Positions 473-7,915 of a DNA stretch of 7,980 nucleotides are shown in pieces. The stretch lies in sequence record NZ_CP121825.1, one strand, 5' to 3'. Source of the stretch: a plasmid. Below the pieces are notes generated by a model, which had not been told where the DNA came from, ran no database searches, and saw only the letters and a list, made by a program, of their open reading frames with translations. The position numbers and the translations under genes were made by a program. Positions within the stretch are counted from its first letter, which is position 1. Each line of letters begins with the position of its first letter.

Positions 473-715
473 TTAACGGCTGCTGAGATCCACCTCGATG
501 CGGCGAAAACCGATGGTGTGCGCCGTGTTCACCCCGGCATCGATGGTCTTAAAGACCCGCCACCCTCCGCGCTGGCGTTCCAGCACTTCCGTTTCTGCAT
601 TGCGGCCAAACTTCACCAGGTGAAGATGGTAGCCGGCACCCATCGGGGTCGGGGCGATCACCGCCTTGGCAAATCCCCCTTGTTCAAATACCCACTTCGC
701 CTTGATCTCTTCCAT
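473..715 (-). CDS. Conserved hypothetical small protein of 80 aa (MEEIKAKWVFEQGGFAKAVIAPTPMGAGYHLHLVKFGRNAE...).
   Basis: Complete ORF. All 7 nucleotide substitutions against copy 2 within the shared frame are synonymous (GCC/GCT, GTG/GTT, GGG/GGC, GGT/GGG, AAG/AAA, AGC/AGT, CTC/CTA). That argues for real coding on the minus strand. No confident family assignment. Confidence 0.7.
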   Translation of the reverse strand: MEEIKAKWVFEQGGFAKAVIAPTPMGAGYHLHLVKFGRNAETEVLERQRGGWRVFKTIDAGVNTAHTIGFRRIEVDLSSR

Positions 716-797: not shown

Positions 798-823
798 ATT
801 CTTATTTTGATTGGCGTTACTCA

Positions 824-960
824 GGTTCGTAGAACCGCACTCGGGTTTCAAAGGGGCGCCCCTTTGGCACGCCGATAGGATGCAGGCACGCCGACGGTAC
901 AAACGCAGTTTGTATACGCTCGGTCTCGTGCCTGTATACAGTCGGTGTCGTGCCTGTCTG
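824..960. repeat. Dense cluster of short palindromes and direct repeats. GGTTCgtaGAACC is at 824-836. The 18-bp perfect palindrome CAAAGGGGCGCCCCTTTG is at 849-866. TACAAACgcaGTTTGTA is at 898-914. The direct repeat GGCACGCCGA occurs twice. CGGTnTCGTGCCTGT occurs twice at 921-957.
   Basis: Seen directly in the sequence and conserved in copy 2 at 5744-5880. Cis-acting site cluster that looks like an origin or att site. Confidence 0.6.
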
Positions 961-981
961 CACTAACACCGCAACCACTAG

Positions 982-1080
982 ACCTACAGAATACCTACCG
1001 TTTACCTACAGAATCCCTACTGTCTACCTACGGCCTGCCTACTGTTTGCCTACAGAACACCTACGGAATACCTACAGAAT
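982..1080 (+). repeat. Nine contiguous 11-bp direct repeats (consensus aCCTACaGaat).
   Basis: Units at 982, 993, 1004, 1015, 1026, 1037, 1048, 1059 and 1070. The invariant core CCTAC recurs once per helical turn. Absent from element 2. Confidence 0.85.
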
Positions 1081-1110
1081 GGAGAGCAAAACTGATGACA
1101 GGTGGCGAGG

Positions 1111-1181
1111 CCACAAAAAGACCCACAAAATAACCCACACACACCAAGCGACCCACACATTGCCCCACAAAAAGACCCACA
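1111..1181 (+). repeat. Six copies of (C)CCACA spaced 12-18 bp apart.
   Basis: CCACA or CCCACA at 1111, 1122, 1134, 1152, 1164 and 1176. Element 2 has only a single CCTACA and ACCCACA at the equivalent place. Confidence 0.7.
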
Positions 1182-1196
1182 GAATCGGATACCAAA

Positions 1197-1409
1197 TTGA
1201 TGAATCAAAAAACGAATTTGAAGAGCATTCCTGAGGAGCAGTTCAGCCCGTACCGAGCCGCTGACTACCTAACGACCCCAGCGGAGATTGCCGCCTACAT
1301 CGAGGTCGCCAAGGAGGAAAACGATCCGGCCCTTCTCGCTGCCGTCATGGAGGACATCCGCCAAATCGAGACGGTGCAACATGCCAGCAAAACGCGAATC
1401 CTGCCTTAG
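1197..1409 (+). CDS. Small protein of 70 aa resembling the N-terminal domain of HigA-family addiction-module antidote proteins (..AADYLTTPAEIAAYIEVAKEENDPALLAAVMEDI..). No helix-turn-helix domain.
   Basis: The motif pattern DYL..PE.IAAYL.A..E.DPAL is typical of that family. In the conserved 3' half, 7 of 8 substitutions against copy 2 are synonymous. Confidence 0.6.
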   Translation: MMNQKTNLKSIPEEQFSPYRAADYLTTPAEIAAYIEVAKEENDPALLAAVMEDIRQIETVQHASKTRILP

Positions 1410-1641: not shown

Positions 1642-2382
1642 GCCCTACTGCCCACAGGCCAAAAACACGGCCTGATGGACAGCCCTTCGGGAACGGGCTT
1701 AACCACCTCGCCAAGATCCTCTCTCGATTATGAAGAGCTCAAAGACAACGGCCTAAAGGCCGCGCGAAAAAGGATGTCGCAGAGCTCCCCGGTCAGCAGG
1801 CTCTCCTATCTTTCCGCTGCGCTTCAAGATAGGAGAGCCCTCCTGCTTGGCTACGTTAAAAATGACGTAGTTACACAAGATAGACTCGCCTTGCTCCGGA
1901 CTATCGAGACCGCTTGCGGCAGCTCCCTCTCACGCGCTCCAGAGACACACCCCGTCCTTGCTGCATCTGCTTTAGTCCCCGCCTGATGGCCAGACTGCCT
2001 CGCCGTTTTTTAAGAGCTGGCCGTGGTTGGTTCCCCGTTACGCTCTGCTTGCAAATGCCCCAGGGTTGCGAGTCCTGGGAGGCTGTGATGCGCGATCGCA
2101 CGCTGGGCAGTATGTGAGATTTCCCCGTTCTGCCCGACCAACCACACCCACTCACGGCAACAAACTCATGCTTCCAATCCGTGCGGGTACGACAAAGCGC
2201 CAAAGGTGGTGGCCTTTGGTAACGGGCGTAGAGAGAGGGAATGCTTGATTGATGGGCGCCAAGGAGGCTAAACTTATTAGGCTTTTAGGTGACTGCTTCC
2301 CTCTACGGAGCCGTTACCAGGTGAAGTCGGTTCCCCAACTGACTACACCTTCGAACAAACCACCTTGCCGGGTGGTTTTTTT
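1642..2382 (+). ncRNA. Candidate large structured non-coding RNA of about 740 nt, copy 1.
   Basis: No ORF is conserved between the copies (the 103-aa ORF is broken by a stop in copy 2). There are many GC-rich hairpins: GGCCtaaaGGCC, CTCTCCTAT...ATAGGAGAG and CCAAAGG..CCTTTGG. Compensatory substitutions between the copies occur at 2061-2080 (CCAGG/CCTGG against CCACG/CGTGG) and in the helix 2234-2309 (AGAGGGAA/TTCCCTCT against GCGGGAA/TTCCCGC). It ends in an intrinsic terminator. Confidence 0.5.
2357..2382 (+). terminator. Rho-independent terminator: AAACCACCttgccgGGTGGTTTTTTT.
   Basis: A stem of 6-8 bp with a 6-nt loop, followed by a 7-T run. Confidence 0.8.
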
Positions 2383-2481
2383 CGTTTCTGGCGAACAGAA
2401 CAGATCGGGCTGGTAAGGTTCAACCGAGTACTTTCCGAGATCAGCCACGCAACTGGGGAACATATCCAAGCGCATGTGCTG

Positions 2482-4204: not shown

Positions 4205-4434
4205 ATGACAAAGAATAGAAACCCCTTATCCGCCAGAAAAATACTAGCCCACAACCTCAAAGAAAAGCGGGGGGGGAGCTAGGCCTATCACAAGAAGCTT
4301 TAGCTGACATGGCTGGGCTCCATAGAACTTATGTTGGTTCAGTAGAACGAGCAGAAAGAAACATATCCATAGATAACATTGAACGCCTAGCAAAAGCGCT
4401 CAATGTTCATCCATCATCTCTACTAATGGAATAG
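4205..4434 (+). pseudogene. pvuIIC: Controller (C) protein gene of the XRE helix-turn-helix family. It is frameshifted in the 8-G run 4269-4276.
   Basis: The first frame gives MTKNRNPLSARKILAHNLKEKRGG. The second gives LGLSQEALADMAGLHRTYVGSVERAERNISIDNIERLAKALNV. Joined, they make a typical 76-aa C protein. Nine G would be in frame. Confidence 0.8.
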
Positions 4435-4439
4435 AAGTA

Positions 4440-4920
4440 ATGTCTCATAACGATTTTGAAAAATTAAAAAAAACTATGGCCAAACATCCAGGAATACCAA
4501 GAGCTGGCAACTAAACACGGCATAAAGGATATATTTCAAGATAACGGAGGAAAACTTCTTCAGGTAATTTTAATAACGAACCTACAGGTTCTAAGCGGTA
4601 GGGAGGGTAATGATGCAGTTGATATTAATGGACAGGAGTACGAACTAAAGTCAATCAATATCGATCTAACAAAGGGCTTCTCTACTCATCATCACATGAA
4701 CCCTACAATCATTGCAAAGTACAGAAAGGTTCCATGGATATTTGCCATATACAAAAACATTGAACTCCAGGAGATATATCAGTTGGAGCCAGGTGATTTG
4801 GAATGTTACTATTCCAAGTGGGAGCAAAAATGGCATGAAGATGGAGGGAAGGACATTAACAACCCCAAAATCCCTGTTAGTTTTGTAATAGAAGTCGGAA
4901 AAAAAATATACCCTCAGTGA
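4440..4920 (+). pseudogene. pvuIIR: Restriction endonuclease gene homologous to R.PvuII, about 159 aa. It is frameshifted in the 8-A run 4466-4473.
   Basis: After the frameshift the translation is ..[81 protein letters not shown]. It shows high identity to R.PvuII as I recall it, including the catalytic D..E.K. Seven A would be in frame. The gene starts 5 bp after the C-gene stop. Confidence 0.9.
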
Positions 4921-4989: not shown

Positions 4990-5017
4990 GGTGCGCATAA
5001 CGCCTTTTATGTTAAAC
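4990..5017. other. Second dif-like XerC/XerD site. GGTGCGCATAA-CGCCTT-TTATGTTAAAC.
   Basis: Same XerC arm and central region as site 1. The XerD arm has one mismatch to the canonical dif arm. It marks the start of the second repeated element. Confidence 0.75.
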
Positions 5018-5635: not shown

Positions 5636-5994
5636 ATCAAAAACCTGTTTTGATGATTCATATCTACGTTATGACACCAACGCAGCTAAACATCAAATTA
5701 TAATTATGAATAATCAAATTCTAATTTTGATTGGTATTACTCAGGTTCGTAGAACCGCACTCGGGTTTCAAAGGGGGCGACCCTTTGGCACGCCGATAGG
5801 ATGCAGGCACGCCGACGGTACAAACGCAGTTTGTATACGTTCGGTCTCGTGCCTGTATACAGTCGGTGTCGTGCCTGTCTGTTTCTTCAATTTCTGTATG
5901 CACCTACAAAAAACCCACATAAAGGAAGCATAAAGAAGGCGATAGGGAATCAATTGGGGTGCATTTAGAAACCATTAAGGTCATATAAAACCTA

Positions 5995-6011
5995 CAGATA
6001 GATACTATCTG
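5995..6011. promoter_or_regulatory. 17-bp palindrome CAGATAGatACTATCTG upstream of the 176-aa ORF.
   Basis: Perfect 7-bp arms. The direct repeat GCATTCT occurs twice just downstream. Confidence 0.4.
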
Positions 6012-6062
6012 GGTAGCATTCTGGTACATTGGTGGGCATTCTCACTGAAAAATGACGCCGCC

Positions 6063-6593
6063 ATGCTGCCGAAACCAAGCAATAAATTCATTCCAAAGAT
6101 CGAGTCATACCTCCACCAAGGGGAGGTATCAAAACCCAAGGCAAAAGTAATCGCCCACGTCTATCCAGAAGTGGAGACGATGATCGAACAAGGCTTTTCC
6201 CTTACTCAAATCGTGGCGGCCATCAATGCGAACGATGTGGGCTTTACCATCACACTTGCCACCTTCAAAAACACCCTGCATAGGCTGCGCAAGCGCCAGA
6301 TTCAACAAGCACCGACACCGAAGAACATCACACAGCCAGCCCGTAACGCATTCCGCGAGAGGCCAAAAAAGATTCAGCACGATAACAATCCTGATCTTGA
6401 TGCGCTGCTAGATAGGCTGGGAGCTGAAGCGGGAACCTTGGCTGACTACTTAAAGGTGTGTTTCAACTCGGAATCTATCGCCAACAGGGCCATAGAGGCT
6501 GGGGTATCCATAGAGGAAATTAGGTCATGGGAATGCCCGAACCAGATCCGGCTTGGCACAAGGTTAAGCCACTTCATTAGAAGTGCATCATAA
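6063..6593 (+). CDS. Hypothetical 176-aa protein unique to element 2, with a possible helix-turn-helix segment (GFSLTQIVAAINANDVGFTITLATFKNTLHRLRKRQ).
   Basis: Long ORF occupying the slot where element 1 has the iterons. There is no clear Shine-Dalgarno at ATG 6063, and an alternative start exists near 6181 after GGAG. No confident family assignment. Confidence 0.45.
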   Translation: MLPKPSNKFIPKIESYLHQGEVSKPKAKVIAHVYPEVETMIEQGFSLTQIVAAINANDVGFTITLATFKNTLHRLRKRQIQQAPTPKNITQPARNAFRERPKKIQHDNNPDLDALLDRLGAEAGTLADYLKVCFNSESIANRAIEAGVSIEEIRSWECPNQIRLGTRLSHFIRSAS

Positions 6594-6603
6594 AGGTAAA
6601 GTG

Positions 6604-6813
6604 ATGAGTCAAAATTTAAATTTGATTGCTACGGGGAAAGAGCAATTCAGCCGATACCATGTTGCCGACTACCTGACGAACCGTGCAGACGTCTCGGCCT
6701 ACCTCAAAGCCGCCAAGGAAGAGAACGATCCGGCCCTCCTCGCTGCCGTCATGGAAGACATCCGCCAAATAGAAGCGGTGCAACATGCCAGCAAAACGCG
6801 AATCCTGCCATAG
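6604..6813 (+). CDS. Second copy of the HigA-N-like small protein. Its N-terminal half is divergent, and there is an alternative upstream ATG at 6583.
   Basis: AAGGTAAAG Shine-Dalgarno before ATG 6604. The C-terminal 35 aa are identical to copy 1, while the N-terminal half is only about 50% identical. Confidence 0.6.
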   Translation: MSQNLNLIATGKEQFSRYHVADYLTNRADVSAYLKAAKEENDPALLAAVMEDIRQIEAVQHASKTRILP

Positions 6814-6861
6814 CCATAGAGCAGCCATGAATTTCGTACGTACGAAGAAAAGAGGCACCCA

Positions 6862-7044
6862 GTGACATATCAGAAGCTGACGAAACAAGAACTCACCGAG
6901 CTACTGGAGGAAATGAGGGCGGCCGGAGAATGGGCTAAAGCCGTTTTGGAACAAGAGCGGCGGCAAACGCTAGCACATTGCGAATCCTGCACTAGCACCT
7001 CAAATTTCGTACGTACGAAAAAACCAACCCAGCTCCGTGGATAA
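6862..7044 (+). CDS. Second copy of the 60-aa GTG-start ORF.
   Basis: AAGAGG Shine-Dalgarno upstream. Same frame and length as the element-1 copy. Confidence 0.45.
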   Translation: MTYQKLTKQELTELLEEMRAAGEWAKAVLEQERRQTLAHCESCTSTSNFVRTKKPTQLRG

Positions 7045-7784
7045 GCCCTACTGCCCACAGGCCAAACACACGGCCTGATGGACAGCCCTTCGGGAACGGG
7101 CTTAACCACCTCGCCAAGATCCTCTCTCGATGATGAAGAGAGCAAAAACAACGGCCTAAAGGCCGTGCAAAAAAAGATGTCGCAAAGCTCCCCAGTTAGC
7201 CGGCTCTCCTATCGTTCCGCTGCGCTTCAAGATAGGAGAGCCCTCCTGCTTGGCTACGTTAAAAATGACGTAGTTACACAAGATTGACTCGCCTTGCTCC
7301 GGACTATCGAGACTGCTTGCGGCAGCTCCCTCTCACGCGCTCCAGAGACACACCCCGTCCTTGCTGCATCTGCTTTAGTCCCCGCCTGATGGCCAGACTG
7401 CCGCGCCGTTTTTTAAGAGCTGGCCGTGGTTGGTTCCCCGTTACGCTCTGCTTGCAAATGCCCCACGGTTGCGAATCGTGGGCGGCAGTGGTGCGCGATC
7501 GCACGCTGGGCAGTATGTGAGATTTCCCCGTTCTGCCCGACCAACCACACCCACAAACGGCAACAAACTCATGCTTCCAATCCGTGCGGGTACGACAAAG
7601 CGCCAAAGGTGGTGGCCTTCGGTAACGGGTCGAGTTGCGGGAAAAGCTTGATTGAATGGCCGAATGGCCGCTAAACTGATTAGGACTTTTGGTAGCTGCT
7701 TCCCGCACGGAGCCGTTACCAGGTGAAGTCGGTTCCCCAACTGACAACACCTTCGAAGAAACCGCCCTGCAAGGCGGTTTTTTC
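7045..7784 (+). ncRNA. Candidate large structured RNA, copy 2.
   Basis: Homologous to 1642-2382, with compensatory changes in three helices. Confidence 0.5.
7758..7784 (+). terminator. Rho-independent terminator, copy 2: AAACCGCCctgcaaGGCGGTTTTTT.
   Basis: The stem is preserved by a compensatory A:T to G:C change relative to copy 1. Confidence 0.8.
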
Positions 7785-7915
7785 GTTTCTGGTGCAACTG
7801 CAGCAGCGCAGCGGGAATGGAGGCGAAAGCATTAGCGGAAGAAGTGCGGGAAAAACTTGTTGCTCGCTTAATGATATTAATTTAATATCAAAATAGATAC
7901 GAAAGAGATATTAAA

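Follow-up and report, generated by a model that had tools for sequence, protein, structure and literature searches.

A phased 11-bp repeat array beside an oriT-like region of a small ColE1-type Aeromonas plasmid as a candidate orphan stbS-like site

The StbA/stbS pair is a poorly understood, NTPase-free system of segregation and conjugation control that is known mainly from plasmid R388. Here we compare with it two arrays of short direct repeats located on 7,980 nucleotides of plasmid DNA from the sequence record NZ_CP121825.1 (the window), which consists of two tandem, related Aeromonas ColE1-type plasmid units, element 1 and element 2, arranged head-to-tail at Xer sites. In R388, stbS comprises 9-bp repeats that are separated by 2 bp and grouped in two sets of five, in an 11-bp cycle that holds StbA on one helix face (bioRxiv 10.1101/2022.04.29.490116). 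Segregation of R388 requires no plasmid protein other than StbA, which also represses several promoters and, together with StbB, controls conjugation (bioRxiv 10.1101/2022.04.29.490116). When provided in trans, StbA stabilises an R388 derivative that is deleted for stbABC but keeps the repeats, and the layout mobC<-oriT->stbA->stbB is found in both R388 and MOBP6/IncI2 plasmids (PMC3098194). The authors of the StbA study compared stbS with parC/ParR, and in tubC/TubR (type III) and pSK1 par a helix-turn-helix (HTH) protein likewise acts on tandem direct repeats, which are present in two sets 5′ of its own gene (bioRxiv 10.1101/2022.04.29.490116).

The arrays of the window are situated in element 1 and have the following anatomy:
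982 to 1080, plus strand: array 1, nine 11-bp iterons in a single orientation with the consensus N-C-C-T-A-C-N-G-W-W-N, among them ACCTACAGAAT three times
1081 to 1110, plus strand: non-repetitive spacer of ~30 bp between the arrays, GGAGAGCAAAACTGATGACAGGTGGCGAGG
1111 to 1186, plus strand: array 2, six CCCACA-type units with spacings of 11, 12, 18, 12 and 12 bp

A sequence-only reading of this DNA had proposed nine phased 11-bp CCTAC iterons. This was confirmed by the core starts, which follow each other at exactly 11 bp (983, 994 and so on up to 1071), by a comparison with shuffled sequences, in which CCTAC-N6-CCTAC-N6-CCTAC was not matched once in 200 shuffles as opposed to seven matches in the window, and by Tandem Repeats Finder, which reported 9.0 copies of period 11 at 982-1080 and scored a 22-bp super-period higher. 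The accompanying description of six irregularly spaced CCCACA motifs was accurate with respect to the uneven spacing and to five exact copies (1122, 1134, 1152, 1164 and 1176), but the sixth core, at 1111, is the near-copy GCCACA. As the same reading had it, the arrays are flanked by the 80-aa gene, which is divergent (473-715, minus strand), and the HigA-N-like gene (1197/1200-1409), and they occur in element 1 only, since element 2 has just CCTAC at 5903 and 5991 and CCCACA at 5914, the motifs at 5903 and 5914 being 11 bp apart. The gap from the end of array 2 to the start codon of the HigA-N-like gene measures 11-14 bp. Long-type relatives of element 1 carry an insertion of ~50 bp at the spacer between the two arrays.

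Direct repeats with a cycle of ~11 bp, present as two sets beside oriT, are shared by the window, R388 stbS and the stbAB(C) loci of MOBF11, MOBP11 and MOBP6 (IncI2) plasmids. The window differs from R388 in its motifs (CCTAC-N-G and CCCACA instead of TTGCATCAT), in the number of units (nine plus six instead of five plus five) and in the ~12-bp period of the second set; moreover, element 1 is a small ColE1-type replicon without stbA, stbB or a relaxase in cis. Features shared with parC/ParR of R1 and pB171 are the 11-bp iterons, the two blocks and the possibility of a continuous protein coat on one face. The sequence-only reading had regarded the arrays as a centromere-like partition site, as in R1, or as iterated regulator sites. 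Of this idea, a centromere-like or iterated regulator-site array phased at one helical turn has stood, while a parC bound by a ribbon-helix-helix (RHH) ParR is not supported, because no ParM or ParR was found among the ORFs (open reading frames) of the window or its relatives, either by Pfam and NCBIfam scans or in the record annotations. In further contrast to R1 and pB171, the arrays are not placed on either side of a par promoter, and their candidate binder would be an HTH rather than an RHH protein. From tubC/TubR and pSK1 par the locus differs in having no TubZ and no Par-like gene, and no sequence relation to these systems was detected. Judged by analogy, StbA/stbS of R388 thus appears to be a better counterpart of the arrays than parC/ParR of R1.

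The position of the arrays is defined by the region to their left:
815 to 964, plus strand: oriT-like region containing AGGTTCGTAGAACCGCAC, the GC-rich palindrome CAAAGGGGCGCCCCTTTG, two copies of GGCACGCCGA and 2.5 copies of the 22-bp repeat TGTATACNNTCGGTNTCGTGCC

This region, which can also be described by CCCTTTGGCAC and 22-bp TGTATACNNTCGGTGTCGTGCC repeats, shares long invariant blocks in alignment with the stretch between mobC and stbA of Aeromonas caviae pAcaBE3, a MOBP contig, the IncI2 plasmid pChi7122-3 and a Citrobacter plasmid, all of which are conjugative or of the MOBP type. In MOBP/IncI2 conjugative plasmids it is this intergenic region that holds oriT. All four plasmids have ~8-12 short direct repeats with a period of ~11 bp after the oriT region, followed by a homologue of a 176-aa ORF of element 2; next downstream in pChi7122-3 and the MOBP contig comes StbB (218 bits versus a cut-off of 200). 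Array 1 is located directly to the right of the oriT-homologous region, that is, in an stbS-like position. An stbA gene downstream of the array is absent in element 1 and in 13 of 13 array-bearing plasmids, and it is present for the related arrays, short or long, of stbA-bearing relatives. Element 1 and its relatives are typed as non-mobilizable, and no relaxase genes were found beside the oriT-like region. With a homologue of a MOBP/IncI2 oriT and no relaxase genes, element 1 thereby resembles 'non-mobilisable' plasmids whose orphan oriT is served by a helper relaxosome, except that its oriT-like region travels with orphan regulator or centromere arrays. In the literature searched, we found no description of such a combination of orphan oriT and orphan array, or of the arrays themselves.

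The same oriT-like region is followed by nine units of the ACCTACAGAAT type, clustered as 2+3+4, in three Enterobacterales ColE1-type plasmids (Citrobacter NZ_CP099085 and NZ_CP099223; Enterobacter NC_004936). NZ_CP099085 (L146) has a Rop gene, and the Aeromonas backbone proteins (80-aa, HigA-N and 60-aa) as well as StbA are missing from it. The array therefore travels with the oriT-like region and not with a protein encoded in cis. In E. coli complete genomes the Citrobacter-type module was essentially absent, with one partial oriT match. A contig scan for four CCTAC-N6 units gave >120 unrelated matches (Bacteroidales MAGs, Pseudomonas and others), with no Aeromonas among the matches listed, and this pattern is therefore too unspecific. 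As a separate observation, the MOBP/IncI2-like oriT-like region with its CCTAC iterons adjoins at 2095-2440 of NZ_CP099085 a classical ColE1 bom sequence, GGGGTATCGGGGCGCAGCCATGAC, which we take to be the bom region.

These distributions bear on the view that a backbone protein encoded in cis (the 80-aa, HigA-N-like or 60-aa protein, or the RHH ParG-like protein with ParA) uses the arrays as its centromere or operator, similar to ParR/parC or ParG/parH. In favour of this view, the arrays are situated between the genes for the 80-aa and the 70-aa HigA-N-like proteins, with array 2 abutting the start codon of the latter gene, the 80-aa protein faintly matched the NCBIfam ParC partition-associated family (E 0.003, far below the cut-off), and a parA remnant with a ParG-like gene is present at 2395-2999. 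However, relatives without the array, element 2 among them, have the 80-aa, HigA-N and 60-aa genes unchanged, and the Citrobacter plasmid with the oriT-like region and CCTAC array has none of the three; ParA/ParG is absent from most array-bearing plasmids, present in array-less ones and has upstream repeats of its own, ACCAAATRAAYAT; and the operator-like motif of the backbone is ATCAAA/TTTGAT instead of CCTAC. We therefore regard a backbone protein as a very improbable owner of the arrays. In particular, the 80-aa, 60-aa and RHH-like products, suggested as binders from the sequence alone, are unlikely in this role because the array plasmids of Citrobacter and Enterobacter lack all of them. 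A type Ib ParA/ParG centromere was likewise rejected, the parA of element 1 being a C-terminal remnant and the genes being independent of the array.

For a set of 13 array-bearing and 6 stbA-bearing plasmids, presence or absence of the relevant genes was tabulated by local tblastn. The StbA-like ORF was absent from all 13 array-bearing plasmids and the long CCTAC array from all six stbA-bearing ones. The 80-aa, HigA-N-like and 60-aa genes were found in all 13 + 6, and ParA/ParG-like genes in some plasmids of each class. In this set, the array and stbA are mutually exclusive. BLAST of the two halves of the window against each other gave the alignment blocks 1-263/4984-5246, 348-960/5266-5881, 1236-2391/6640-7792 and 2635-2821/7794-7980, and a swapped segment that spans 961-1235 in element 1 and 5882-6639 in element 2. 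Besides the restriction-modification (R-M) cargo and the parA remnant of element 1, this segment is the only other large difference between the elements. The 176-aa ORF thus fills the slot of the array in element 2, as had been pointed out earlier, and the two segments are alternative modules. The module of element 2 contains:
6063 to 6593, plus strand: gene for a StbA-like protein, type I, of 176 aa, in which a disordered linker connects an N-terminal HTH domain to a conserved C-terminal helical domain
5892 to 6017, plus strand: operator-like motifs 5′ of the stbA-like gene, with the two sites listed next
5892 to 5925, plus strand: TTCTGTATG-c-ACCTACAAAAA-ACCCACATAAA, with CCTAC and CCCAC 11 bp apart
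5988 to 6017, plus strand: operator-like motif in the form of an imperfect palindrome, AAACCTACAGATAGATACTATCTGGGTAGC

The best match of the 176-aa ORF in the PDB, as determined with phmmer, was R388 StbA (7pc1; E 0.0016), residues 29-78 aligning to StbA 22-69. In an AlphaFold model of the ORF (pLDDT 69), the N-terminal helices coincide with StbA alpha1-3 through this alignment. The NCBIfam profile StbA_2 gave E 0.02 and 15.5 bits for the ORF, below the cut-off of 100, and E 1e-4 for its IncI2 homologues, likewise below the curated cut-off. The IncI2 and MOBP homologues are 33% identical to the ORF across residues 21-174 and occupy the position of stbA in the order mobC<-oriT->stbA-like->stbB. 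No stbB or mobC is present in the window, where the 176-aa gene adjoins the oriT-like region. Common to the ORF and StbA is a binder family whose N-terminal HTH domain is conserved while the rest varies; the ORF departs from R388 StbA, whose C-terminus is not conserved, in its conserved C-terminal domain, and its similarity remains below the curated family cut-offs. On sequence grounds, we consider the 176-aa ORF to be a distant StbA homologue that is supported by synteny, and not a proven member of the family. Separately, residues ~126-171 (window 6438-6575) showed 48% identity to proteins annotated as 'TraK family' on ~40-kb Klebsiella plasmids, a similarity that hints at a connection with relaxosome accessory proteins.

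The slot in Aeromonas ColE1-type plasmids is occupied by StbA-like genes whose products have a common C-terminal domain and differing N-terminal domains. The subtypes, listed here with our plasmid designations, and related genes elsewhere are preceded by distinct repeats:
type I (element 2, L134-L136, L143 and L144): two or three CCTAC/CCCAC units at 11 bp, with inverted copies too
type I, operator units of L143: CCCTACAGATT CCCTACAAAAA CCCTACACATA
type II (L137, L138 and L145): GRCACAAA arrays
type III (L139, NZ_CP091141): ten CCCACA/CCTACA units directly 5′ of the gene
pAcaBE3: GGACACA-type repeats
IncI2: ACATAGCA repeats
Pseudomonas: TAGACA repeats

CCYAC on the gene strand was found 5′ of 7 of 7 type I and III genes as compared to 0 of 7 genes of other subtypes, and the operator-like motifs are better preserved in L134-L136, L143 and L144 than in element 2. 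Iterons 1-3 of a long-type array (L003) were 82% identical to the three operator units of L143, and an 18-mer, CCCACAAAAAGACCCACA, is common to array 2 and the type III array of L139, where shuffled sequences reached a maximum of 12. The sequence-only reading had left the choice between an expansion and a swapped module; we find elements of both, an alternative module in the same slot and an expansion of the type I operator of two to three units. Long-type relatives stack a GRCACA array, an apparent 5′ stub of a type II stbA, a CCTAC array and a CCCACA array. A further array is carried by pAerXV (L130, NZ_MT094143), which has nine extra units with an 11-bp period between the Xer site and the 80-aa gene (TGTCCCACTTC TGTCTCACTTC TGTCCCGGTTT TGTACCGCTTC ...). 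The reverse complement of this array (GGGACAGAAG / GGTACAAAA) resembles type II GRCACA-type units, in another place and orientation.

By BLAST, the array was detected in ~17 plasmids, nearly all of them ColE1-type plasmids of Aeromonas. It was extracted from 14 sequences, and a logo was derived from 83 units of 10 distinct arrays. Positions C2, C3, A5 and C6 were invariant across the 83 units, T4 was replaced by C in seven, position 8 was G in 68, and the other non-core positions were nearly free. The copy number of array 1 ranged from 6 to 10 in whole 11-bp units only, and array 2 was gained or lost by 12-bp units. When the arrays of the window and pAV7K were compared in register, 0 of 40 core positions differed versus 28 of 48 non-core positions (Fisher p 2e-10). 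As far as can be judged from the sequences, this is the pattern of selection on a short recognition core that is repeated once per helical turn, despite evident slippage. The comparison of copy numbers across strains, which had been recommended as a check for a neutral microsatellite, showed variation, but in whole units and with invariant cores, and the arrays are therefore unlike such a microsatellite.

This conservation also has to be reconciled with the idea that the arrays are a decaying remnant or slippage-prone microsatellite, left after deletion of stbA and without a present function. Such a relic would account for the lack of stbA in every array-bearing plasmid, for the apparent type II stbA 5′ stub between the arrays of long-type relatives and for the slippage that is evident, for example, from three identical TACCTACTGCA units in L003 and the gain of a 12-bp unit in L124. 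It would not account for invariant cores amid inter-core positions that are 58% different between lineages, for a period that has been kept exactly, for arrays of 8-10 units as compared to 2-3 in any type I operator, or for conservation of the module in distant Citrobacter and Enterobacter plasmids. We therefore regard a relic as improbable.

Reasoning by analogy with R388, we favour, at slightly better than even confidence, the interpretation that the arrays are an orphan stbS-like site that works with StbA supplied in trans, for instance by the neighbouring element. The arrays would then represent clusters of one-per-helical-turn sites for the HTH domain of StbA-family proteins. For array 1 (CCTAC-N-G, 11 bp) the candidate binder would be the type I StbA-like protein of element 2, because the units match type I operator units, and for array 2 (CCCACA, ~12 bp) it would be a type III StbA-like protein, because the motif matches the array 5′ of this second StbA subtype. 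Since neither element 1 nor the other array-bearing plasmids have stbA, both arrays would be orphan cis sites. StbA could come here from element 2, which is 5 kb away on the same contig, and elsewhere from a co-resident plasmid or a conjugative helper. Coating of the array along one face of the DNA could provide the small plasmid with StbA-dependent positioning and stability and, alternatively or additionally, couple the orphan oriT to the Stb/relaxosome machinery of a helper. Titration of the StbA of a competitor or helper would be another possible payoff.

Several observations weigh against this interpretation. The StbA homology of the 176-aa ORF is weak by sequence, below the NCBIfam cut-off; Foldseek returned no significant match in the PDB for the full-length 176-aa model, and a family profile matched 7pc1 more weakly (E 0.1), probably because divergent subtypes were mixed in it. 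The link between motif and subtype appears, from the sequences compared, to rest on few independent lineages, and none of the type I genes found had a long CCTAC array in cis. Furthermore, the 10-mer that the array has in common with type I operators is not rare, as A/C-rich shuffles reach 10-12, and we therefore rely on the presence or absence of phased CCYAC and on the 18-mer of type III. None of the 15 Aeromonas PLSDB records with an stbA-like gene came from a strain with an array-only plasmid, so that a regular supply of StbA in trans is hypothetical, and the window, as the only case in which array and stbA-like gene are joined, may be an assembly concatenation. Finally, ColE1-type plasmids are usually multicopy and have less need for active segregation.

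The most serious rival is a host regulator that reads 11-bp direct repeats. According to this explanation, the iterons are bound by a host protein or another unrelated DNA-binding protein, such as a winged-helix response regulator of the OmpR/PhoB type, and the likeness to StbA operators is coincidental or secondary. Direct repeats at 10-11 bp are recognised by OmpR/PhoB-type regulators, and 11 bp is typical of several regulator families. A chromosomal binder would also explain why array-only plasmids occur in many strains without a recorded stbA plasmid, and why the arrays are found in both Aeromonas and Enterobacterales. For the operator of a response regulator, however, nine plus six tandem sites would be unusual, the motif is located 5′ of type I and III stbA genes but not of other subtypes, and the array occupies the stbS position beside oriT. 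We therefore judge a host regulator unlikely.

Rather doubtful, in our opinion, is an extension of the stbS-like interpretation, in which the oriT-like region and the stacked StbA-type arrays of two or three specificities, in the absence of stbA, stbB and relaxase, would form a dedicated hitch-hiking device by which small ColE1-type plasmids capture the StbA of a co-resident plasmid or helper. The gains could be nucleoid positioning and stability and an oriT coupled to StbB and the type IV secretion system (T4SS) of the helper. Multicopy dosage could titrate helper StbA and thereby de-repress helper conjugation; in R388, deletion of stbA is reported to raise transfer 50-fold (PMC3098194). The stack of GRCACA, CCTAC and CCCACA arrays in long-type relatives would look as if it covered several StbA subtypes.

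A different role for the iterons, as replication-control sites for a Rep protein ('RepB') in the manner of iteron-type theta replicons, can be assessed from the replicons themselves:
2281 to 2385, plus strand: RNAI of the element 1 replicon (Rfam RF00106), with the copy of element 2 at 7684-7786

Tandem iterons are typical of Rep-dependent origins, and the 80-aa gene is annotated as 'plasmid replication protein RepB' in some records. Nonetheless, both elements have a complete ColE1-type RNAI (54.7 bits in element 1 and 57.8 bits in element 2, at a gathering score of 47), and the iterons are therefore not needed for replication. Element 2 and many relatives replicate from the same replicon without the array. 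The units of 11 bp are also shorter than usual, Rep iterons typically measuring 17-22 bp. For the 80-aa 'putative RepB' there is no experimental evidence of its function or of its being a Rep (PMC8683028). We give hardly any credence to this role. RNAI was the sole type of Rfam match in the window, and no RNA element coincided with array 1 or array 2. Two other candidates were rejected: the CCCACA units fit the DnaA box TTATCCACA poorly, as judged by eye, and Xer accessory sequences are contradicted by a distance of ~950 bp from the arrays to the Xer core.

While StbA/stbS is already known, an stbS-like array without stbA by an orphan oriT on ColE1-type plasmids appears to be new. If our interpretation is true, StbA-like proteins with swappable DNA specificity and matching 11-bp arrays would be common by MOBP/IncI2-type oriTs, and small 'non-mobilisable' resistance plasmids would carry the cis half only, oriT plus arrays. 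The plasmids concerned are those of Aeromonas (with qnrS2, GES and R-M cargo) and of Citrobacter/Enterobacter. They would provide a concrete case of a plasmid that depends on the partition or transfer regulator of another plasmid, together with a natural panel of protein-subtype/repeat pairs for the reading of DNA by StbA, and the 176-aa 'hypothetical protein' family would gain a function.

As for the architecture of the window, which is probably an entire contig, megablast grouped it with small Aeromonas plasmids at ~93% identity. A dif/cer-like Xer core, GGTGCGCATAA-CGCCTT-TTATGTT, opens each half at the unit junctions (7-33 and 4990-5016), and the two units are therefore read as joined at Xer sites. 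The window could be a heterodimer of two different ColE1-type plasmids or the assembly concatenation of two co-resident plasmids. The cargo of element 1 is PvuII-like restriction-modification. Four genes are broken by frameshifts at homopolymer runs, namely the C.PvuII-like gene (G8, 4269-4276), the R.PvuII-like gene (A8, 4466-4473), a ParG-like gene (C7, 2802-2808) and the element 2 copy of the 80-aa gene (C6, 5594-5599). These are likely long-read errors rather than real pseudogenes, and their location exactly at homopolymers calls for caution with single-base indel detail in this contig. The parA remnant of element 1 (2395-2715) corresponds to the C-terminal part of a ParA of small size, with 96% identity to the last half of pAV7K ParA, and is followed by a ParG-like 80-aa gene at 2759-2999. 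A ParG-like gene is present in both elements; the parA remnant is wholly deleted in element 2, where the sequence from 7794 onwards joins directly after RNAI.

The remaining features next to the oriT-like region and the arrays are:
473 to 715, minus strand: gene for the 80-aa 'putative RepB', the left neighbour, which occurs in relatives with and without the array
716 to 811, no strand: ATCAAA/TTTGAT-rich inverted repeats that lie to the right of the 80-aa gene, before the oriT-like region, and form an operator-like motif distinct from CCTAC
1197 to 1409, plus strand: 70-aa HigA-N-like gene, with the right boundary of the swapped module 36 nt inside; element 2 copy at 6583/6604-6813

The 80-aa protein was modelled with low confidence (pLDDT 62), and no fold or sequence relatives were found in the PDB. 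A palindrome matching ATCAAA/TTTGAT, TTGATGAATCAA, is located at 1203-1221 at the start of the 70-aa gene and, together with the inverted repeats at 716-811, brackets the oriT-like region and arrays; this pair is probably the operator of a backbone regulator. The 70-aa gene is kept beside ori in all relatives. Its product matched the HI1420-downstream HigA-type antidote family in the N-terminal half only (profile 2-46 of 89), has no HTH and could, as one possibility, be a stand-alone toxin-neutralising domain. A promoter and terminator scan of 700-1700 found nothing, and the promoter of the 70-aa gene was not located. Lastly, the motif GCGAATCCTGCC-TAGC...AATTTCGTACGTACGAA occurs twice in each element (1411-1445 and 1585-1620; 6815-6850 and 6988-7023) and holds the perfect palindrome TTCGTACGTACGAA (1429-1442 and 1603-1616). 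Of the two copies, one comes after the 70-aa gene and the other falls within the 3′ end of the 60-aa gene, so that they look like a paired site between the arrays and the replication origin.

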